A stretch of DNA of 8,553 nucleotides, from IMG/VR virus record IMGVR_UViG_2617270968_000006; one strand, given 5' to 3'. Position numbers and translations under genes: made by a program. This DNA is from a virus (Duplodnaviria; Heunggongvirae; Uroviricota; Caudoviricetes). Positions within the stretch are counted from its first letter, which is position 1. Every line of letters begins with the position of its first letter. Of this stretch, positions 1 through 8,553 are shown in pieces. The notes under the pieces are model-generated. The model did not search any database. It was not told where the DNA came from and saw nothing but the letters and a program-made list of their open reading frames with translations.

Positions 1-1011
1 TTATAACGTCACTCCGCCTTTTAGTGGATTCAGAGCGACGGCGTTCTGCAGGTAGTCAGGCGCAAGGTGCGCATAGGTCATTGTCTGCTGAATGCTCGCA
101 TGCCCCAGAATCTGTTGCAGTGCAATTATGTTGCCCCCATTCATCATGAAATGGCTTGCGAATGTATGCCGCAGAATGTGGGTTGCCTGATTGGGAGGTA
201 TATCAGGTTTCACTCTGCGTAAAATCCCGCAAAACTTCTCATAATCTACCTTGAACAATTTGGCGCTGGCCTCCTCTTTAACTTTTTTCTCCAGTTCCTC
301 AGAAATCGGCACTGTTCGCTTTTTACCGTTTTTGGTTTTCAGGAAGGTAACCCTGCAACTTGTAATCTGTGCTGGTTTTAGTGTGGCAACTTCCGTCCAC
401 CTTCCTCCAGTGCTCAGACATAAAAGCGCGACAAGTAAGTCATCACCAGTCAAAACATTTAGCAGTTTTTCGATTTCTGCTTTTTCCAGGAACGTCATTT
501 CAGGGTTAGCCTCCGTCAGTGGCGGCAGTCCGTGAATTGGGTGTTGCCCGGAAAATTCATCCAATTGAATTAATTTTGTGAACATGCCGGATAATCGGTA
601 CATGTCGCGGTTTATCGTTGCAGCACTGATGCCATCACGTAGTCGCATGGAGCGATAATCCATCAAAGCCCTTTTGTTCATCCGACTCACTGGTATATCA
701 CCTATGCCGCTGATGGTTTTGAGCAGATGATTAAACTCTTTTGTCCCATGCTCGTGGTTTTGCCCGTGGTATTTCCACCAGATGTCGAGCAATTCTGTCA
801 AAGTTCGGCGGTCTGCTCGCTGGCCTCCCCATTCTTTCTGACTGGCATTGGCGATTGTGTATCGCTCAAATGCTAGTGCTTCAGCTTTTCTTTCAAATTT
901 CCTGCGGATGCGTTTTCCGTCGCGACCGCGAGGTCTAATGTCCACTTCATAGCGACCATCATCGAGCTTCTTAATTGCCATAAGAAAGCCCTCCGGCGCT
1001 GTATTCACCAT
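1..1011 (-). CDS. int: Tyrosine site-specific recombinase (P2-type integrase), 336 aa, complete; stop codon at 1..3
   Basis: ATG at 1009-1011 (minus) to TAA at 1-3. C-terminal region has the HxxR motif (HILRHTF) and a likely catalytic Tyr (TMTYAHL); basic N-terminal arm-binding-like domain. Size matches P2 Int (about 337 aa, from memory). Confidence 0.9.
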   Translation of the reverse strand: MVNTAPEGFLMAIKKLDDGRYEVDIRPRGRDGKRIRRKFERKAEALAFERYTIANASQKEWGGQRADRRTLTELLDIWWKYHGQNHEHGTKEFNHLLKTISGIGDIPVSRMNKRALMDYRSMRLRDGISAATINRDMYRLSGMFTKLIQLDEFSGQHPIHGLPPLTEANPEMTFLEKAEIEKLLNVLTGDDLLVALLCLSTGGRWTEVATLKPAQITSCRVTFLKTKNGKKRTVPISEELEKKVKEEASAKLFKVDYEKFCGILRRVKPDIPPNQATHILRHTFASHFMMNGGNIIALQQILGHASIQQTMTYAHLAPDYLQNAVALNPLKGGVTL

Positions 1012-1050: not shown

Positions 1051-1344
1051 TTAGCCAATCCTTTTCGCGGAGTGGTTGGATTCTGTTGACTCTGGCCCAC
1101 TGTGCGCGAGAGACGGTGCGATTTGTCCCGCTTCCGGCGCTGTTTTATCTGTCATGAGCCATAGTGTGTATTTTTGGAACTGAGGTGCATTGGTGACCTG
1201 CAACACAACTTGGATGCCAGGGTCTTGATGGCCTCCTTCGTAATTCTTTAGCGTTCCTAACGCTATGCCGCTGATTTCACTGAATTTTGCTTGAGTTAGC
1301 CCTTCCGATTGTCTTATTGCTCTTAATTTCTGTGCGATATTCAT
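1051..1344 (-). CDS. C: P2 C-type immunity repressor homolog, 97 aa (internal start of the 158-aa track ORF)
   Basis: Translation MNIAQKLRAIRQSEGLTQAKFSEISGIALGTLKNYEGG... has an N-terminal HTH and a C-terminal segment (QFQKYTLWLMTDKTAPEAGQIAPSLAHSG) strongly reminiscent of P2 C. Sits immediately upstream of and co-oriented with int, as in P2. Start chosen at ATG 1342-1344 because the longer form would overlap the divergent promoter region. Confidence 0.8.
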   Translation of the reverse strand: MNIAQKLRAIRQSEGLTQAKFSEISGIALGTLKNYEGGHQDPGIQVVLQVTNAPQFQKYTLWLMTDKTAPEAGQIAPSLAHSGPESTESNHSAKRIG

Positions 1345-1374
1345 TTGACATAGTCCTGACTTAATGACTATATT
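1345..1374 (+). promoter_or_regulatory. Candidate early promoter (Pe-like) driving cox-B-A: -35 TTGACA (1345-1350), 18-bp spacer, -10 TATATT (1369-1374)
   Basis: Consensus -35 hexamer and near-consensus -10 read directly from the sequence, positioned between the repressor start and cox. Confidence 0.45.
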
Positions 1375-1409
1375 CCCCGAAAAGGTCATTAATCCAGAAC
1401 CTTTTCGGG
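1361..1409. promoter_or_regulatory. Nested inverted repeats in the switch region: TTAATGAC (1361-1368) / GTCATTAA (1385-1392) flanking the -10, and CCCGAAAAGGT (1376-1386) / ACCTTTTCGGG (1399-1409); candidate operator(s) or leader RNA hairpin
   Basis: Perfect 8-bp and 11-bp inverted repeats seen directly in the sequence, overlapping the candidate Pe -10 and transcript start. Confidence 0.4.
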
Positions 1410-1479
1410 CGTGAGTCCAGCGCCGCTTAAACGGTTCCAAGCGGTTTTTAAGGGGCTGGATCCTATGAGGGTAACATAG

Positions 1480-1752
1480 ATGGAAGTTAATGATTATGTG
1501 ATTAAGTACCCGCTTGATGCGGTACATGCGGAAAAGTTTGCAGATTTATTGGGTAAACCAAAAACCGCAGTTACAGAAATGATAAAGGCTAACAAGCTAC
1601 CGGTTATCGAGCTTCGAGATCCAAATAAGCCGAAGGCCCGCGCCGGTGAGAAATGGGTTTTCATTCCAGAGTTTAATCGCGCTGTACGTGAGGCGTTTTA
1701 TAACCGACCGGTTGAACAGCGTGATGCATGGCTTTTGTGGATGGGGTTGTGA
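1480..1752 (+). CDS. cox: Cox-like excisionase / early repressor of lysogenic promoter, 90 aa
   Basis: First gene of the rightward operon. Translation carries KLPVIEL.DP...RAGEKWVFIPEFN...RDAWLLWMGL, which resembles my recollection of P2 Cox. GAGGG RBS 8 nt upstream of ATG 1480. Confidence 0.75.
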   Translation: MEVNDYVIKYPLDAVHAEKFADLLGKPKTAVTEMIKANKLPVIELRDPNKPKARAGEKWVFIPEFNRAVREAFYNRPVEQRDAWLLWMGL

Positions 1753-3236: not shown

Positions 3237-3508
3237 GTATTCGTATTGAAATTGGCGAACGTTATGTCGTTACCAGTGACAGCTTTCAGTTTATTCTCCA
3301 CGAGAAAAAGAGAGCGGAAAGCGGTAAAAACGCCGGTCAGGAATGGCTGGCGGTGGTTGGTTATTGCCCGAAATTAAGCCAGCTCGTTTCCGGCCTGATG
3401 CATCACGATATTCTGACCGGAAGCGCAAAGTCTTTTGCTGATTTAAACGCGCAGGTTGAGCAACTCAGCAGGCGTTGTTCAGAGGCTTTGGGCTCATATG
3501 GCCGTTAA
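3233..3508 (+). CDS. Small hypothetical early protein, 91 aa (P2 orf83 position)
   Basis: ATG 3233 overlaps the orf82 stop (ATGA); its own stop overlaps the start of A by about 11 nt. Confidence 0.5.
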   Translation: MSIRIEIGERYVVTSDSFQFILHEKKRAESGKNAGQEWLAVVGYCPKLSQLVSGLMHHDILTGSAKSFADLNAQVEQLSRRCSEALGSYGR

Positions 3509-5735
3509 AGCCTCCGGGCGTTTTGTCCCTCCGTCAGCATATGCCGCAGGCACCGGTAAGACGTTTACCGGTGCTTATGCATGGAACGCGCCACGCGAGG
3601 CTGTCGGGCGCGAAAGACCCCTTACACGTGACGAGATGCGTCAGGTGCAAGGTGTTTTATCCACGATTAACCGCCTGCCTTACTTTTTACGCTCGCTGTT
3701 TACTTCACGCTATGACTACATCCGGCGCAATAAAAGCCCGGTGCACGGGTTTTATTTCCTCACATCCACTTTTCAGCGTCGTTTATGGCCGCGCATTGAG
3801 CGTGTGAATCAGCGCCATGAAATGAACACCGACGCGTCGTTGCTGTTTCTGGCAGAGCGTGACCACTATGCGCGCCTGCCGGGAATGAATGACAAGGAGC
3901 TGAAAAAGTTTGCTGCCCGTATCTCATCGCAGCTTTTCATGATGTATGAGGAACTCTGCGATGCCTGGGTTGATGCACATGGCGAAAAAGAATCGCTGTT
4001 TACGGATGAGGCGCAGGCTCACCTCTATGGTCATGTTGCTGGCGCTGCATGTGCTTTCAATATTTCCCCGCTCTACTGGAAAAAATACCGTAAAGGACAG
4101 ATGACCACGAGGCAGGCATATTCTGCCATTGCCCGCCTGTTTAACGATGAGTGGTGGACTCATCAGCTTAAAGGCCAGCGTATGCGCTGGCATGAGGCGT
4201 TACTGATTGCTGTCGGGGAGGTCAATAAAGACCGTTCTCCTTATGCCAGTAAACATGCCATTCGGGATGTGCGTGCACGCCGCCAGGCAAATCTGGAATT
4301 TCTTAAATCGTGTGACCTTGAAAACAGGGAAACCGGCGAGCGCATCGACCTTATCAGTAAGGTGATGGGCAGTATTTCTAATCCTGAAATTCGCCGGATG
4401 GAGCTGATGAACACCATCGCTGGAATTGAGCGTTACGCCGCCGCAGAGGGTGATGTGGGGATGTTTATCACGCTGACCGCGCCGTCAAAGTATCACCCGA
4501 CTCGTCAGGTCAGAAAAGGCGAAAGTAAAACCGTTCAGCTTAATCACGGCTGGAACGATGAGGCATTTAATCCAAAGGATGCGCAGCGTTATCTCTGCCG
4601 TATCTGGAGCCTGATGCGCACGGCATTCAAGGATAATGATTTACAGGTCTACGGTTTGCGTGTCGTCGAGCCACACCACGACGGAACGCCGCACTGGCAT
4701 ATGATGCTTTTTTGTAATCCACGCCAGCGCAACCAGATTATCGAAATCATGCGTCGCTATGCGCTCAAAGAGGATGGCGACGAAAGAGGAGCCGCGCGAA
4801 ACCGTTTTCAGGCAAAACACCTTAACCGGGGCGGTGCTGCGGGATATATCGCGAAATACATTTCAAAAAACATCGACGGCTATGCACTGGATGGTCAGCT
4901 CGATAATGATACCGGTAGGCCGCTGAAAGACACAGCTGCGGCTGTTACCGCATGGGCGTCAACGTGGCGCATTCCGCAATTTAAAACGGTTGGCCTGCCG
5001 ACAATGGGGGCTTACCGTGAACTACGCAAATTGCCTCGCGGCGTCAGCATTGCTGATGAGTTTGACGAGCGCGTCGAGGCTGCACGCGCCGCTGCAGACA
5101 GTGGTGATTTTGCGTTGTATATCAGCGCGCAGGGCGGGGCAAATGTCCCGCGCGATTGTCAGACTGTCAGGGTCGCCCGTAGCCCGTCGGATGACGTTAA
5201 CGAGTACGAGGAAGAAGTCGAGAGAGTGGTCGGCATTTACGCGCCGCATCTCGGCGCGCGTCATATTCATATCACCAGAACGACGGACTGGCGCATTGTG
5301 CCGAAAGTTCCGGTCGTTGAGCCTTTGACTTTAAAAAGCGGCATCGCCGCGCCTCGGAGTCCTGTCAATAACTGTGGAAAGCTCACCGGTGGTGATACTT
5401 CGTTACCGGCTCCCACATCTTCTGAGCACGCCGCAGCAGTGCTAAATCTGGTTGAAGACGGTGTTATCGAATGGAATGACCCGGAGGTCGTGAGGACGCT
5501 CAGGGGTGCATTAAAACACGGCCTGAGAACACCAAATCGTCAGCAAAGAAACGGAATCCCGTTAAAACCGCATGAAATTGCACCATCTGCCAGACTGACC
5601 AGGTCTGAACGATTGCAAATTACCCGTAGCGGATATCGCGCGCGGCGGGATAGAACGAGCGAACGAGCTGGAACACGCCGACACCGAGGCCGGTGGCATC
5701 AATTCCGATGTATTCGACGTTGTATTTTTCGGTGA
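3498..5735 (+). CDS. A: P2 A-like rolling-circle replication initiator (HUH endonuclease), C-terminally disrupted: native sequence appears to end near 5625 and the last ~35 codons read through into antisense terminase DNA
   Basis: Start MAVKASGRFVPP at ATG 3498. HUH motif PHWHMML (HWH codons 4692-4700) and a YIAKYISK double-tyrosine motif (Tyr codons 4845-4847 and 4857-4859), as in phiX174/P2 A proteins. Tail SGYRARRDRTSERAGTRRHRGRW is arginine-rich junk overlapping the minus-strand P fragment. Confidence 0.85.
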   Translation: MAVKASGRFVPPSAYAAGTGKTFTGAYAWNAPREAVGRERPLTRDEMRQVQGVLSTINRLPYFLRSLFTSRYDYIRRNKSPVHGFYFLTSTFQRRLWPRIERVNQRHEMNTDASLLFLAERDHYARLPGMNDKELKKFAARISSQLFMMYEELCDAWVDAHGEKESLFTDEAQAHLYGHVAGAACAFNISPLYWKKYRKGQMTTRQAYSAIARLFNDEWWTHQLKGQRMRWHEALLIAVGEVNKDRSPYASKHAIRDVRARRQANLEFLKSCDLENRETGERIDLISKVMGSISNPEIRRMELMNTIAGIERYAAAEGDVGMFITLTAPSKYHPTRQVRKGESKTVQLNHGWNDEAFNPKDAQRYLCRIWSLMRTAFKDNDLQVYGLRVVEPHHDGTPHWHMMLFCNPRQRNQIIEIMRRYALKEDGDERGAARNRFQAKHLNRGGAAGYIAKYISKNIDGYALDGQLDNDTGRPLKDTAAAVTAWASTWRIPQFKTVGLPTMGAYRELRKLPRGVSIADEFDERVEAARAAADSGDFALYISAQGGANVPRDCQTVRVARSPSDDVNEYEEEVERVVGIYAPHLGARHIHITRTTDWRIVPKVPVVEPLTLKSGIAAPRSPVNNCGKLTGGDTSLPAPTSSEHAAAVLNLVEDGVIEWNDPEVVRTLRGALKHGLRTPNRQQRNGIPLKPHEIAPSARLTRSERLQITRSGYRARRDRTSERAGTRRHRGRWHQFRCIRRCIFR

Positions 5736-6180
5736 GTTTGCGGATGGATTCAGCCTGGGTGGCAAAGTCCATGCCTTTCCACTGGTGACGCTCAAGTATT
5801 CTGAATTTGCCACCGGCCACCACCGGCGGTGCCAGTACCACGCATCCGGCGCTGTCGCCACGGTGTGACGGGTCGTAACCAATCCATACCGGGCGGGATC
5901 CGAACGGATTGGCGGCAAACGGCGCATAGTCTTCCCATTCTTCCAGCGTGTCGACCATGCAGCGTTGCAGCTCCTCGAACGGGAACACCGACGCCTTGTC
6001 GTCAACAAATTCACACATGAACAGGTTTTTAAAATCGTCGGCGCTGTTTTCGCGTTTAAGCTGCTCAATGTCGAACAGCGTGCAGCCACCTTTCAGGGCG
6101 TCCTCAATGGTGACAATCTGCCGCCACTGGCCGTCCGCACAGAGAAGCCCACCGGCAAGGGCGTTATGTCCCGCCGACAC
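5620..6180 (-). pseudogene. Fragment (about 186 codons) of terminase large subunit (P2 gpP-like), nuclease-domain region; N-terminal ATPase portion deleted
   Basis: Translation contains WIGYDPSHRGDSAGCVVLAPP and EYIGIDATGLGVGV, typical acidic-residue motifs of the terminase RNase-H-like nuclease domain. Minus-strand orientation relative to A matches P2, where Q and P are transcribed opposite to A. Far too short for a terminase. Confidence 0.7.
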
Positions 6181-6185
6181 CGGCC

Positions 6186-6746
6186 GTGATGGAATCTGAC
6201 ACCGATTATCGTCTGCGTATTCAGCAGGCCTTTGAAGGTTTAAGCGTCGCCGGGTCGGTGGGTGCCTATCAGTATCATGGTCGCAGTGCTGACGGGCGTG
6301 TCGCGGATATCTCTGTCACCAGTCCGTCTCCGGCCTGCGTCACCATCTCTGTGCTGTCACGTGAAAATAACGGTGTCGCATCCGAAGACCTGCTGGCGGT
6401 GGTGCGTAACGCCCTTAATGGCGAGGACGTCAGGCCGGTGGCCGACCGCGTGACCGTGCAGTCTGCCGCCATCGTTGAATATCAGATAAACGCCACGCTT
6501 TACCTTTACCCTGGTCCCGAAAGCGAACCCATTCGCGCTGCCGCTGTGAAAAAGCTGGAAGCGTATATCACGGCACAGCACCGGCTGGGGCGCGACATCC
6601 GTTTGTCTGCCATTTATGCCGCTTTGCATGTGGAAGGCGTGCAGCGTGTCGAGCTGGCCGCACCACTGGCCGACATTGTGCTCAACAGTACGCAGGCGTC
6701 TTTCTGTACCGAATACCGCGTCGTGACCGGAGGCTCGGATGAGTGA
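6186..6746 (+). pseudogene. C-terminal fragment (about 186 aa) of baseplate assembly protein J-like; 5' part deleted
   Basis: Directly followed by an overlapping ATGAGTGA junction with the gpI start, as for J/I in P2; abuts the terminase fragment with no intervening genes. Confidence 0.65.
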
Positions 6747-6903
6747 TTCGCGACTGCTGCCGACTGGCTCATCACCGCTTGAAGTTGCCGCCGCAAAAGC
6801 CTGTGCGGAAATTGAAAAAACGCCGGTCAGTATTCGTGAGCTGTGGAACCCGGATACCTGCCCGGCAAATCTGCTGCCGTGGCTGGCGTGGTCATTTTCG
6901 GTT
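6739..6903 (+). pseudogene. N-terminal fragment (about 55 aa) of baseplate protein I-like; remainder deleted
   Basis: MSDSRLLPTGSSPLEVAAAKACAEIEKTPVSIRELWNPDTCPANLLPWLAW matches my recollection of the P2 gpI N-terminus; the frame then degenerates and terminates at 6966. Confidence 0.6.
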
Positions 6904-6939
6904 GGCGGAGTTCTCCATCAGCCTGGCTACCGGTCGGGC

Positions 6940-7114
6940 AGATATTTACACGGAAACACCGGTTAAAGTGTCAGGCTTTAAGCGCGTCATAGACGAGCAG
7001 GACTGGACAATCACTAAGGTGACACATTTTCTGAATAATAGCGGCTTCACGACGTCCTTGGAGCTTGAGGTCAGGCTTTCTGATGTGGAGTACGAAACAG
7101 AAGATGATGAGTGA
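6940..7114 (+). pseudogene. C-terminal fragment of tail protein D-like (last ~60 aa), ending with an acidic tail EYETEDDE immediately upstream of ogr
   Basis: Different reading frame from the I fragment; position immediately upstream of ogr matches P2 gene order (D-ogr). Start of homology is approximate. Confidence 0.55.
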
Positions 7115-7195
7115 TGTTTTTGTTTTATCTGTTTGTTTTATAAGGATAAATTAACTAAAATGGCACCATCAACAAAACCGGAAGAGGTGCTCGCG

Positions 7196-7414
7196 ATGTT
7201 TCATTGTCCTTTATGCCAGCATGCCGCACATGCGCGTACAAGCCGCTATATCACTGACACGACAAAAGAGCGTTATCACCAGTGTCAGAACGTGAATTGC
7301 AGCGCCACGTTCATCACCTATGAGTCGGTACAGAGATACATCGTGAAGCCGGGAGAAGTCCACGCCGTAAGGCCGCACCCGTTGCCGTCAGGGCAGCAAA
7401 TTATGTGGATGTGA
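7196..7414 (+). CDS. ogr: Ogr late-gene transcription activator (zinc-finger), 72 aa, intact
   Basis: MFHCPLCQHAAHARTSRYITDTTKERYHQCQNVNCSATFITYESVQRYIVKPGEVHAVRPHPLPSGQQIMWM corresponds to P2 Ogr as I recall it, with Cys4 motif CPLC...CQNVNC. GAAGAGG RBS before ATG 7196. Confidence 0.9.
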   Translation: MFHCPLCQHAAHARTSRYITDTTKERYHQCQNVNCSATFITYESVQRYIVKPGEVHAVRPHPLPSGQQIMWM

Positions 7415-7424
7415 TCACAAAAAT

Positions 7425-7450
7425 AGCCCCTCAGTTGAGGGGCTTTATTT
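7425..7450 (+). terminator. Rho-independent terminator after ogr
   Basis: Stem AGCCCCTC (7425-7432), loop AGTT, GAGGGGCT (7437-7444), followed by TTTATTT. Confidence 0.7.
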
Positions 7451-7457
7451 ATGGTCG

Positions 7458-7476
7458 ATGTGGACGCTATGTGGAC
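7458..7476 (+). repeat. Two direct repeats ATGTGGAC (7458-7465 and 7469-7476); candidate integrase arm-type binding sites of the att P-arm
   Basis: Direct repeats seen in the sequence; they resemble my recollection of the P2 Int arm-site consensus (TGTGGACA-like) and sit where the P arm should be (just after ogr). A third similar copy, ATGTGGAT, lies at the ogr 3' end (7403-7410). Confidence 0.5.
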
Positions 7477-7542
7477 AGCGGTTGACATAAATCCATTTAT
7501 ATCATCAGGTTAGGTGCTTTTTTGTGACACCATCCCTGTCTT

Positions 7543-7569
7543 CCCCCACATGCTGTGGGGGTTTTTTTT
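7543..7569 (+). terminator. Rho-independent terminator-like hairpin; possibly the 3' end of the host gene at the att core
   Basis: Stem CCCCCACA (7543-7550), loop TGC, TGTGGGGG (7554-7561), then T8 (7562-7569). Confidence 0.65.
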
Positions 7570-7597
7570 ATCCTCAATTTGCCTGCTGCTTAATGCA

Positions 7598-7624
7598 TTG
7601 CAGATGATTTGCTTCCGTTATACT
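7598..7624 (+). promoter_or_regulatory. Weak candidate fieF promoter: -35 TTGCAG (7598-7603), -10 TATACT (7619-7624), 15-bp spacer
   Basis: Hexamer matches only; spacer is suboptimal. Confidence 0.3.
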
Positions 7625-7650
7625 AGCGTCAGTTGATAGCGGGAGTATTT

Positions 7651-8553
7651 ATGAATCAATCTTATGGACGGCTGGTCAGTCGGGCGGCGATTGCTGCGAC
7701 GGCGATGGCTTCGCTGCTATTGCTGATTAAAATTTTTGCATGGTGGTATACCGGGTCGGTGAGTATTCTCGCCGCGCTGGTGGATTCGCTGGTGGATATC
7801 GGCGCGTCGTTGACGAATTTATTGGTGGTGCGATATTCCCTGCAACCTGCCGACGATAATCACTCGTTTGGTCACGGTAAAGCTGAGTCCCTCGCGGCGC
7901 TGGCGCAAAGTATGTTTATCTCCGGTTCGGCACTATTCCTGTTTTTGACGGGTATTCAACATCTGATATCTCCAACACCGATGACAGATCCAGGCGTCGG
8001 GGTTATCGTGACAATTGTGGCGCTAATTTGTACGATTATCCTTGTCTCGTTTCAGCGTTGGGTGGTGCGGCGGACGCAAAGCCAGGCGGTGCGGGCTGAT
8101 ATGCTACATTACCAGTCTGATGTTATGATGAACGGCGCAATTCTGCTGGCGCTGGGGTTGTCCTGGTACGGCTGGCATCGCGCCGATGCTCTGTTTGCAT
8201 TGGGAATCGGCATCTATATTTTATATAGCGCGTTACGCATGGGATATGAGGCGGTACAGTCATTACTGGATCGCGCATTGCCTGATGAGGAACGGCAAGA
8301 AATTATTGATATCGTGACTTCCTGGCCGGGTGTTAGCGGCGCTCACGATCTTCGCACGCGGCAGTCAGGGCCGACCCGCTTTATTCAGATTCATTTGGAA
8401 ATGGAAGACTCTCTGCCTTTGGTTCAGGCACATATGGTGGCGGATCAGGTAGAGCAGGCTATTTTACGGCGTTTTCCGGGATCGGATGTAATTATCCATC
8501 AGGACCCCTGTTCCGTCGTACCCAGGGAGGGTAAACGGTCTATGCTTTCATAA
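7651..8553 (+). CDS. fieF: Cation diffusion facilitator family Fe(II)/Zn(II) efflux transporter FieF (YiiP), 300 aa
   Basis: Translation from ATG 7651 ([53 protein letters not shown]...) matches enterobacterial FieF as I recall it, including the HSFGHGKAE motif region and a hydrophobic transmembrane profile. The track start at 7633 is a TTG upstream extension. Confidence 0.95.

Follow-up and report, generated by a model that had tools for sequence, protein, structure and literature searches.

Throughout, the window denotes the whole 8,553-nt stretch of DNA that was analysed. In E. coli 4/4, over the sequence examined there, the regulatory module found here is flanked by cpxP on one side and, on the other, by the genes for replication and the earliest of the late genes (portal, terminase and capsid scaffold) of a P2-like prophage. 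The gene order of this module, int (minus strand), C (minus strand) and cox (plus strand), is that of P2-type modules, and open reading frames and Pfam matches place C at the head of a leftward operon, ahead of int, with cox transcribed divergently from it:

1-1011, minus strand: integrase, 336 aa (mechanical open reading frame; Pfam Int_N and Phage_integrase; 97% identical to WPhi Int and 100% to P37 Int)
1051-1344, minus strand: C immunity repressor, 97 aa (helix-turn-helix near residues 17-37; Pfam HTH_3; phmmer match to P2 C)
1480-1752, plus strand: Cox, 90 aa (Pfam Phage_Cox, E = 7e-25, 87 bits against a cutoff of 27.5; 100% identical to P37 Cox, 87% to L-413C, 86% to WPhi and 44% to P2)

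The cox product is a predicted Cox-family lytic repressor that would open the early operon, as in P2-type switches, and the ORF list holds no cII-like gene between cox and B. Judged from these homologies, positions 1051-1480 hold the switch between lysis and lysogeny of a WPhi-type, P2-like prophage that has decayed. This exact decayed prophage was not found among complete E. coli genomes, none of which covered at least 80% of positions 5400-7700.

The start of C was set at the ATG at 1344-1342 by homology to WPhi and P2 and by RefSeq annotation, and on the same grounds a longer mechanical ORF reaching 1527 was rejected as the C gene. C matched the P2 C structures (PDB 2XCJ and 2L49; phmmer E = 3e-24 over residues 3-97) and Pfam HTH_3 (28.6 bits, cutoff 23); with its length of about 100 aa, its N-terminal helix-turn-helix and its homology to P2 C, it is by these comparisons a member of the P2-type immunity repressor family. 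It shares 94/97 residues with P37 C, 66/97 (68%) with WPhi C and 43/97 (44%) with P2 C, and is thus not identical to the P2 protein. An earlier note on this DNA had used P2 as the reference relative, which holds for the family at the above E value, but the nearest characterised relative is WPhi (68% vs 44% for C). Its description of a P2-like C-terminal half and a distinct N-terminal half agrees with the identities to P2 C (27/49 and 16/48, respectively), and the KYTLWLMT...GQIAP residues of the C-terminal half are conserved with both P2 and WPhi C, proteins of a family whose members form dimers in solution and bend their operator DNA. The recognition helix reads LGTLKNYEG here and YGTLSYYES in P2, so that three of the five DNA-contact residues of the P2 C helix (placed by PMC2995052) differ; because of these changes, an immunity specificity other than that of P2, as had been suggested, is very likely. 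Helix 3 equals that of WPhi C at the predicted contact positions, and heteroimmunity to WPhi therefore does not follow from the protein alone. If the same predicted helix-3 contacts go together with the different sites proposed below, either other residues would set specificity or the site assignment would be incomplete.

The closest match to the switch was Yersinia phage P37 (an isolated phage; Peduovirus P37, MT239398), whose DNA is identical over 1342-1482 and whose C differs by three C-terminal substitutions (S78, S82 and N90 here are A, I and D in P37). Defining a P37-type immunity class by sequence, as C at least 95% identical together with the same C-cox spacer, we would place the window in it on both counts. 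The immunity class is therefore not unique to this DNA, as might have been supposed: it equals that of P37, and the P37-class switch occurs in about 42 of 5426 complete E. coli genomes (~0.8%). A literature search for phage P37 turned up no paper describing that phage. Immunity classes I-VII of P2-like phages were reportedly distinguished by Karlsson in 2006, and the WPhi switch is said to have been treated by Liu and Haggard-Ljungquist in 1999; the P37-type class may already be among the published classes, with another operator proposed.

Between C and cox lie the following promoter and Cox-related elements:

1345-1374, plus strand: early promoter Pe (-35 TTGACA at 1345-1350, 18-nt spacer, -10 TATATT at 1369-1374; 11/12 of the sigma-70 consensus)
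1427-1456, plus strand: three tandem 10-bp repeats read from the sequence, candidate Cox boxes (TTAAACGGTT / CCAAGCGGTT / TTTAAGGGGC)
1471-1476, minus strand: candidate Pc -10, TGTTAC, aligned to the -10 of the annotated WPhi Pc (AJ245959 1875-1911); its -35 is weak

Pe, already noted as a candidate, was the only promoter match of a consensus scan within 1000-1800; its -35 abuts the C gene, and its position is that of the annotated WPhi Pe (AJ245959 1757-1793), homology to which predicts a start point near 1380-1381. On the minus strand no promoter exceeded the scan threshold within 1000-1800, the candidate Pc lying below it, and a TA(A/G)CA motif at this candidate is conserved in relatives. 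Homology to the mapped WPhi Pc would put the Pc start near 1463, in agreement with the expectation that Pc lies rightward of 1380 and faces Pe. The two predicted transcripts would overlap by about 84 nt, close to the 82 nt of WPhi (PMC1904263). Periodic repeats similar to the candidate Cox boxes occur at the same place in L-413C, WPhi and an Arsenophonus prophage (locus L012), and their assignment draws by analogy on work on P2 Cox and 186 Apl (PMC7498355, PMC3936717).

The same interval holds two perfect inverted repeats, which had been reported over the early promoter and were found there: one of 8 bp (TTAATGAC at 1361-1368 and GTCATTAA at 1385-1392) and one of 11 bp (CCCGAAAAGGT at 1376-1386 and ACCTTTTCGGG at 1399-1409). 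When 1345-1479 was dinucleotide-shuffled 2000 times, a perfect repeat of 11 bp arose in 2 shuffles, one of 8 bp in 130 and two repeats of at least 8 bp together in only one. They are interleaved rather than nested as first described, the right arm of the 8-bp repeat lying inside the loop of the 11-bp repeat and overlapping its left arm by 2 nt. Moreover, the 8-bp repeat extends to 16-nt arms (1353-1368 and 1385-1400, 13/16 complementary), an inverted match to the Pe spacer that was reached in 3/2000 shuffles (p < 0.002). The two repeats are, from their conservation described below, different things: the 8-bp repeat marks a predicted operator pair (O1 and O2), and the 11-bp repeat forms a stem that covaries and surrounds O2. 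The resulting features are:

1353-1368, plus strand: predicted O1, GTCCTGACTTAATGAC, filling the Pe spacer at the position of WPhi O1
1385-1400, minus strand: predicted O2, GTTCTGGATTAATGAC on that strand, inverted relative to O1 and at the position of WPhi O2
1376-1409, no strand assigned: stem 1, the two 11-bp arms above with a 12-nt loop, enclosing O2
1416-1460, no strand assigned: stem 2, TCCAGCGCC / GGGGCTGGA, made of inverted repeats I4 and I5, with 27 nt between its arms, and forming in both RNA folds

The centres of O1 and O2 are 32 bp apart and the sites bracket the -10 at 1369-1374; two predicted sites flanking the Pe -10 at two to three helical turns are also the arrangement of the P2-type C family. 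Their positions are exactly those of the WPhi TATTGGTGAC half-sites, which were experimentally defined (PMC1904268, PMC1904263), and the family site consensus GTYCTGANTYAATGAC has only two matches in the 8.5-kb window, namely O1 and O2. On its minus strand O1 contains the Shine-Dalgarno sequence of C (AGGA, 1354-1357), so the outer half of O1, overlapping the C ribosome-binding site, is under some constraint unrelated to repressor binding. One could instead regard the 16-nt inverted repeat as an RNA element, in which 1400-1385 pairs with 1368-1353 in the C mRNA and hides the ribosome-binding site while C binds elsewhere. Indeed, 15/16 positions are pairable on minus-strand RNA (13 Watson-Crick and 2 G-U), and the duplex would cover AGGA at 1357-1354 (forced fold, -18.2 kcal/mol). 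However, the unconstrained fold (-25.2 kcal/mol) favours stem 1 by 7 kcal/mol and leaves AGGA in a loop, and in eight related classes the second copy occupies the equivalent position but runs in direct orientation, so that it could not pair; among these are L012, whose O1 is the same, and WPhi, whose sites were defined by experiment. Given also that the site sequence tracks the recognition helix of C, we consider an RNA element decidedly unlikely and retain the operator pair.

We then surveyed 35 related classes (<90% C identity between classes), with the IMG/VR relatives of C sampled as the best 80 of 464 matches. Cognate O1-O2 pairs were more similar than non-cognate pairs (mean 12.2/16 vs 8.1/16), and in 27/35 classes the cognate pair outscored no fewer than 95% of the non-cognate ones. 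Among the classes sampled, the inverted orientation gave the better match in 24 and the direct orientation in 8, with 3 ties; inverted O1-O2 pairs thus recur at the same coordinates in homologous switches rather than being absent from them. O1 similarity reached 8.6/11 in class pairs with the same helix-3 region vs 4-5/11 otherwise, and O1 dyad symmetry averaged 4.2/8 positions vs 2.1/8 in shuffles. A scan of IMG/VR for this O1 family recovered 6 contigs with an inverted O2 and none with a direct O2.

These results bear on the published rule, under which the operator of the P2-type C family consists of two directly repeated half-sites (PMC1904268, PMC2995052); a literature search for inverted-repeat operators of P2-like C repressors likewise gave only direct-repeat papers. 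Such an operator does not appear to be present here. O1 and O2 are 13/16 identical when inverted and 9/16 when compared directly in register; the best direct match of the Pe spacer within the 42 nt downstream of it is at shuffle level (p ~0.54), and a search of 1300-1500 for direct repeats yielded just one two-copy match (71%, at 1348/1474), which bears no relation to the operator positions. C might nevertheless follow the classical rule by binding short direct repeats (either the TGAC repeats or TCCTGA at 1354 paired with TCCAGA at 1393); in that case the inverted repeat would be incidental. Direct repeats have been described for P2, P2 Hy dis and WPhi (PMC1904268, PMC2995052), and a 9/16 direct identity is present. 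This identity, however, is what the shared dyad frame GTC...GAC leads one to expect, the direct match is at chance level when the inverted one is not, and the inverted arrangement is held at the same coordinates by 24 classes, so we regard binding to short direct repeats as very improbable. As the earlier note proposed, the palindromic elements suggest that the operator is laid out differently from the direct repeats in the literature: the switch would be of an ordinary kind, with an operator arrangement that departs from the direct-repeat rule.

The 11-bp repeat behaved differently. In 40 related switches, 87% of stem 1 cells pair, and double-sided changes were counted in 35 cells, compared with 11.2 in shuffles (0/500 reach the observed number). 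Stem 1 is also the dominant element of the minimum free energy fold of the minus-strand RNA (z = -3.7), was the one stem that RNAalifold recovered from the whole Pe-to-Pc overlap, and has wobble pairs of which 13 fit the plus strand and 19 the minus strand. Stem 2 was misaligned by MAFFT, and its compensatory variants in relatives, checked sequence by sequence, include CCAGCC/GGCTGG, CCAGTCC/GGACTGG, CCAGACC/GGTCTGG and CCAACC/GGTTGG. Rfam returned no family for 1000-1800 at E up to 1. A terminator role for the stems was rejected: no T-run follows either of them, whichever strand is read, and the sole terminator-like match lies inside cox.

Stem 1 could also work in DNA, its AAAAGG/CCTTTT flanks of O2 aiding bending by C, or be left over from O2 flips with no role in RNA. 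This would suit its inner arms (AAAGGT/ACCTTT), which are more than 90% invariant and hence unusual for a purely structural helix, the strong DNA bending by C proteins (PMC1904263), and the outer 4 bp, which are absent from Pe RNA because they lie upstream of the predicted Pe start. By contrast, 7/11 pairs show double-sided compensatory changes, and distant relatives keep the stem with quite different sequence (ACCTGTAGG/CCATGCAGGT in L012 and GCTTGGTGGT/ACCATCAAGC in locus L016), which is a signature of base pairing. A role at the DNA level seems unlikely to us, and we favour a stem acting in RNA. The earlier note had also considered a Cox or host-factor site, and one or both repeats might bind Cox or a factor such as IHF instead of C, given that Cox acts in this intergenic region in P2 and that palindromes often mark protein sites. 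Yet Cox is 86-87% identical to that of WPhi and L-413C while O1/O2 are unrelated to theirs and the C helix-turn-helix regions differ; Cox-box-like 10-bp tandem repeats are found at 1427-1456 instead; and the outer stem pairs change compensatorily between close relatives, as expected of base pairing but not of a fixed motif for a host protein. As the sites follow the C recognition helix, we hold binding by Cox or a host factor to be extremely unlikely.

Taken together, these data probably describe a WPhi-type switch of the P37 class in which C acts on the predicted O1 and O2 to shut Pe, the 11-bp stem is a separate element and Pc faces Pe. C would be made from the leftward operon (C, then int) and repress the rightward Pe by occupying two 16-bp sites, O1 in the Pe spacer and O2 just past the start point, with centres about three helical turns apart and the -10 hexamer between them. 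Each site is probably bound by one symmetric C dimer, because each ends in GTC...GAC with partial dyad symmetry. This agrees with P2 C, whose symmetric dimer reaches across two successive major grooves, and with WPhi C, which is able to bind a single half-site (PMC2995052, PMC1904263). Since O1 and O2 are mirror images, the 48-bp operator would form one large imperfect palindrome centred near 1376/1377. Stem 1, with O2 in its loop, most likely acts in RNA: of the two transcripts, the leftward one from Pc (the C mRNA leader) would alone carry the complete stem, and the one from Pe would have the inner 7 bp of it at its 5' end. Pc is expected next to the cox start codon. As the decayed prophage keeps an intact repressor and a predicted operator, it may still confer immunity to P37-like phages.

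A wider reading, which we put forward tentatively and with some doubt, is that direct-repeat recognition is not a property of the family, that orientation is neutral and evolving, that loop inversion flips O2 and that the stems form an RNA layer. Each so-called half-site may be a complete 16-bp site for one symmetric dimer, and evolution may have left the pair inverted in the majority of WPhi-like classes, this one included, but direct in P2, in WPhi and in the Arsenophonus prophage with the same recognition helix; this last locus has an identical helix-turn-helix and an identical O1, and its O2 is direct (14/16 match). A conserved inverted repeat always has O2 in its loop, and inverting that loop could therefore reverse the orientation of O2 in a single step. 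The loops of the window and of L012 are 10/12 identical as reverse complements and 4/12 directly, but shared repressor specificity predicts the same match, and for this reason we treat loop inversion as a hypothesis and not as a proven origin. The overlap of about 84 nt, with two covarying stems, one around O2 and one around the Cox-box repeats, may be an undescribed RNA layer.

P2 C is cited as a rare case of a symmetric helix-turn-helix dimer with direct repeats as its target, and how it recognises them has been called a 'puzzling question' (PMC2995052, PMC4752584). The majority of the sampled relatives and the P37 class have predicted mirror-image sites, and a relative with the same helix has direct repeats. 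If this is borne out experimentally, orientation would not be essential, and the puzzle would shrink to a single dimer on each pseudo-palindromic site. The predicted operators of the P37 class and of the Arsenophonus type offer a natural pair for probing how the C family reads DNA.

Among known systems, P37 shares with the window its Cox and Int (100%), its C (94/97) and its switch DNA; it has been isolated as a complete phage, and what the window contains is a prophage in decay. WPhi (immunity class III) has the same gene order, a Pe -35 abutting the C start codon, a closely related Int (97%) and Cox (86%), two C sites (predicted in the window) bracketing the -10 about three turns apart with O2 in the loop of the same stem, a conserved Pc -10 (TGTTAC, a candidate in the window), a reported or predicted transcript overlap of ~82-84 nt and the same chromosomal site of the prophage, next to cpxP and fieF. 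It differs in its operator (TATTGGTGAC there, predicted as GTCCTGACTTAATGAC here), in the orientation of O2 (direct there, inverted here) and in a 19-nt stretch holding the WPhi Pc -35, which is absent here. C proteins within one immunity class are at least 95% identical (PMC3448106), and the window, with 66/97 identity and no TATTGGTGAC in its switch, falls outside class III. P2 has in common the C family and, as predicted for the window, convergent Pe and Pc, repression of Pe by C and of Pc by Cox, and two C sites flanking the -10; C identity (44%), three of the five helix-3 contact residues, and the sequence, length, spacing and orientation of the sites differ, P2 O1 and O2 being 8-bp direct repeats 22 bp apart. 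The repressor is a 97-aa single-domain P2 C homologue and not a two-domain CI of ~190 aa, which sets the locus apart from 186-type CI switches, themselves marked also by a cII gene and by inverted-repeat operators of the 186 kind. Outside the P2-like phages, the Omega repressor of plasmid pSM19035 provides a precedent for one repressor acting on repeated sites of varying relative orientation, its heptads being direct and inverted in the account cited within PMC4752584; likened by description, it differs in its ribbon-helix-helix fold and contiguous 7-bp heptads. The C.Esp1396I, 434 and P22 c2 repressors, structural neighbours of P2 C (PMC2995052), belong to other families and have shorter inter-site distances (15 bp in C.Esp1396I), but by description they resemble the arrangement proposed here as helix-turn-helix dimers on (pseudo)palindromic sites, with two dimers cooperating on adjacent sites.

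The window carries the early region of a P2-like prophage and, after it, late-gene fragments; the prophage is a remnant, as seen over 3456-8553.

Genes and gene fragments of the window
1-1011, minus strand: int, intact early gene
1051-1344, minus strand: C, the 97-aa immunity repressor gene, intact early gene
1480-1752, plus strand: cox, intact early gene
B and a TraR-type zinc-finger gene: intact early genes
3456-5735: replication gene A, intact early gene, running into the late-gene fragments
5620-6180, minus strand: terminase fragment
6186-6746: baseplate J fragment
6739-6966: tail I fragment
within 7133-7414: ogr, intact
7633-8553: host gene fieF, after ogr

The exact deletion pattern was found in no complete E. 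coli genome of the collection searched. In E. coli 4/4 (L127), the region downstream of cpxP holds a switch 99.9% identical to that of the window, and after it come P2-like replication genes and the first late genes (portal, terminase and capsid scaffold), at which the displayed sequence stops. This prophage with the same switch has a HEPN-domain gene (13810-15132) between gene A and the portal gene, a position at which accessory or defence genes often sit in P2-like phages. WPhi and L-413C share a single chromosomal integration site (PMC3448106), to which the cpxP-fieF position of the window prophage probably corresponds, since its Int is 97% identical to WPhi Int.

We found all the elements that an earlier note had listed for the switch at 1051-1480. 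The early promoter Pe (TTGACA-18-TATATT, 1345-1374; 11 of 12 matches) is the sole promoter-like site in 1000-1800, and its -35 adjoins the C start codon, as in the annotated Pe of WPhi. Both reported inverted repeats are perfect (8 bp, 1361-1368/1385-1392; 11 bp, 1376-1386/1399-1409), and they are interleaved rather than nested as described. Among 2000 dinucleotide shuffles, a perfect 11-bp repeat arose twice and an 8-bp repeat 130 times; a pair of repeats, each ≥ 8 bp, was seen once. The 8-bp repeat forms the core of a longer, 16-nt repeat (GTCCTGACTTAATGAC/GTCATTAATCCAGAAC, 13/16 complementary), whose match to the Pe spacer was equalled in 3 of the 2000 shuffles.

We further compared the C-cox spacers of WPhi, L-413C, SI7 and P2 with those of 121 loci retrieved by C alignment. 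The half-sites of WPhi (TATTGGTGAC) have been experimentally defined and are 34 bp apart (PMC1904268, PMC1904263). One is within the Pe spacer, immediately before the -10, and the other in a hairpin loop immediately downstream, the same two places as the two 16-mers of the window, here the predicted C sites O1 and O2. Across 35 classes (C identity < 90%), with O1 defined as the 16 nt preceding the -10 and O2 as the best 16-mer located 30-35 bp downstream, cognate O1-O2 similarity averaged 12.2/16 versus 8.1/16 with the O2 of other classes, and the cognate pair exceeded at least 95% of non-cognate pairs in 27 of the 35. O2 matched better inverted in 24 classes (17 at ≥ 12/16) and direct in 8 (4 at ≥ 12/16), with 3 tied, which have palindromic sites. 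Class pairs with the same helix-3 region had 8.6 of 11 inner O1 positions in common, compared with 4-5 otherwise, and the correlation of O1 with the helix-turn-helix was twice that with the C-terminal half; the predicted O1 sequence thus follows the recognition helix of C. The whole 8.5-kb window matches the site-family consensus GTYCTGANTYAATGAC at O1 and O2 alone, even at ≤ 3 mismatches.

In the window, O2 matches O1 at 13/16 inverted and 9/16 direct. A prophage of Arsenophonus nasoniae that carries C and cox (L012) has a helix-turn-helix and O1 identical to those of the window, and its second copy (GTTCTGATTTAATGAC) matches at 14/16 direct versus 9/16 inverted. A direct repeat is unable to base-pair; therefore, a function common to these elements must be orientation-independent, which fits binding by a two-fold symmetric protein. 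In the same locus, a 317-aa ORF that is not integrase-like lies on the opposite strand downstream of C (1996-2949), where int is expected; this module is probably also a remnant.

The repressor matches the solved P2 C structure (E 3e-24), and the proposed P2-like C-terminal half and distinct N-terminal half were evident from the identities to P2 C (27/49 vs 16/48). P2 is not its nearest relative: C is closer to those of P37 (97%), Salmonella phage SI7 (76%), WPhi (68%) and L-413C (65%) than to P2 C (44%). The recognition helix of P2 C is helix 3 (Y31-S39), with Y31, T33, S35, Y36 and Y37 positioned for DNA contact (PMC2995052). Helix 3 reads LGTLKNYEG in the window versus YGTLSYYES in P2, with three of the five contact positions different, and the immunity of the window class almost certainly differs from that of P2. 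WPhi helix 3 (LGTVKNYES) has the same residues as the window at each of the five contact positions, so that the protein does not tell whether the two immunities differ. The window Cox is 100% identical to that of P37 and 86% to that of WPhi. At ≥ 95% identity, the class was present in about 42 of 5426 complete E. coli genomes, and also in 9 IMG/VR contigs.

Two annotated starts differ among relatives. The P37 C gene (L001 1552-1890) is annotated 15 codons longer, from an ATG that the GTCATT half of O2 creates within the stem loop (cf. window 1387-1389); the start in homologues and RefSeq is the ATG equivalent to window 1344. For L-413C cox (L002 967-1254), the annotation adds five N-terminal codons (MRVPY). 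The equivalent ATG in the window (1465) is closed by a stop after 4 codons, and thus the shorter cox start is probably the real one in both.

P2 C forms a symmetric dimer, in which the two recognition helices fit into consecutive major grooves; a single "half-site" suffices for WPhi C binding, and footprints point to four monomers on each operator (PMC2995052, PMC1904263). The candidate 16-bp sites are nearly always framed GT(C)...(G)AC and show dyad symmetry at 4.2/8 positions versus 2.1/8 in shuffled controls. On these grounds, we propose that one C dimer may bind each site. Two dimers would then lie about three turns apart on the same helix face, with the -10 and the start point trapped in between. 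In the window class, symmetry about 1376/1377 holds for the outer halves (GTCCTG, GTTCTG) and for the inner ones (GTCATT, twice), and therefore the whole complex could have one two-fold axis. WPhi O1 (L003, AJ245959, ~1765-1780), taken as a 16-mer, is GTAACC-TATT-GGTGAC with halves 5/6 palindromic, and the published 10-bp half-site is only its right part.

The 11-bp repeat (stem 1) is conserved in homologous switches, a stem enclosing O2 being present in nearly all WPhi-like switches with either O2 orientation. When 40 distinct switches were aligned, 87% of the cells paired, 7 of the 11 pairs had double-sided changes, and 35 cells were compensatory versus 11.2 in shuffles; no shuffle and no slid register reached the observed values. 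Distant relatives keep the stem with other sequence (L012, ACCTGTAGG/CCATGCAGGT; L016, GCTTGGTGGT/ACCATCAAGC). Homology to the annotated WPhi Pe predicts a transcription start near 1380-1381, and Pe RNA would therefore begin with the inner 7 bp of stem 1, the covarying outer 4 bp lying upstream of this predicted start. The full stem is contained only in the leftward transcript and dominates the predicted C leader fold (z = -3.7); an alternative fold, in which the operator copies pair and hide the C ribosome-binding site, is 7 kcal/mol worse. Wobble-pair counting did not discriminate between the strands, and an Rfam search of the switch region returned no family match. With low confidence, an RNA role appears most likely for stem 1, as a hairpin either in the C leader or at the 5' end of the early RNA. 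P2 itself (L004, AF063097) has an 8-bp hairpin at 1533-1558 (TTTAGTGC/GCACTAAA). The right arm of this hairpin falls on the start point expected from the annotated Pc -10 (1563-1568), so that the P2 C mRNA may carry a hairpin at its 5' end.

The leftward C/int promoter Pc had been described as lacking a confident assignment but lying rightward of 1380 and facing Pe. A consensus scan of the minus strand indeed yielded no passing site, and alignment to the annotated WPhi Pc puts a candidate -10, TGTTAC, at 1476-1471 with a start near 1463, on the expected side and facing Pe. This start would give an overlap of ~84 nt with Pe RNA; the WPhi transcripts overlap by 82 nt (PMC1904263). The WPhi Pc -35 falls within a 19-nt stretch missing from the window, whose local -35 is poor. 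Further elements lie between the two start points.

Elements associated with stem 2
1416-1424/1452-1460: stem 2, TCCAGCGCC/GGGGCTGGA, between the two start points
1427-1456: three tandem 10-bp repeats, TTAAACGGTT, CCAAGCGGTT, TTTAAGGGGC, inside stem 2

Stem 2 shows clear compensatory variants in relatives. The 10-bp repeats look like Cox and Apl boxes set at one-turn intervals of the helix (PMC7498355), and we infer that they are candidate Cox boxes. With stem 1 around O2 and stem 2 around these repeats, the candidate site set of each repressor would thus lie within its own stem.

Taken together, the switch is an ordinary P2/WPhi-type system, and its immunity class is already in sequence databases. 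Its interest is moderate and lies less in the window itself than in the family-wide pattern and the natural direct/inverted pair. A literature search, whose reach did not extend to the class-defining paper, found no description of inverted sites for P2-like C repressors. That a symmetric dimer should bind direct repeats has been called puzzling (PMC4752584). The departure from the literature would be the operator layout, with a predicted O2 that is inverted, in contrast to the published direct repeats.
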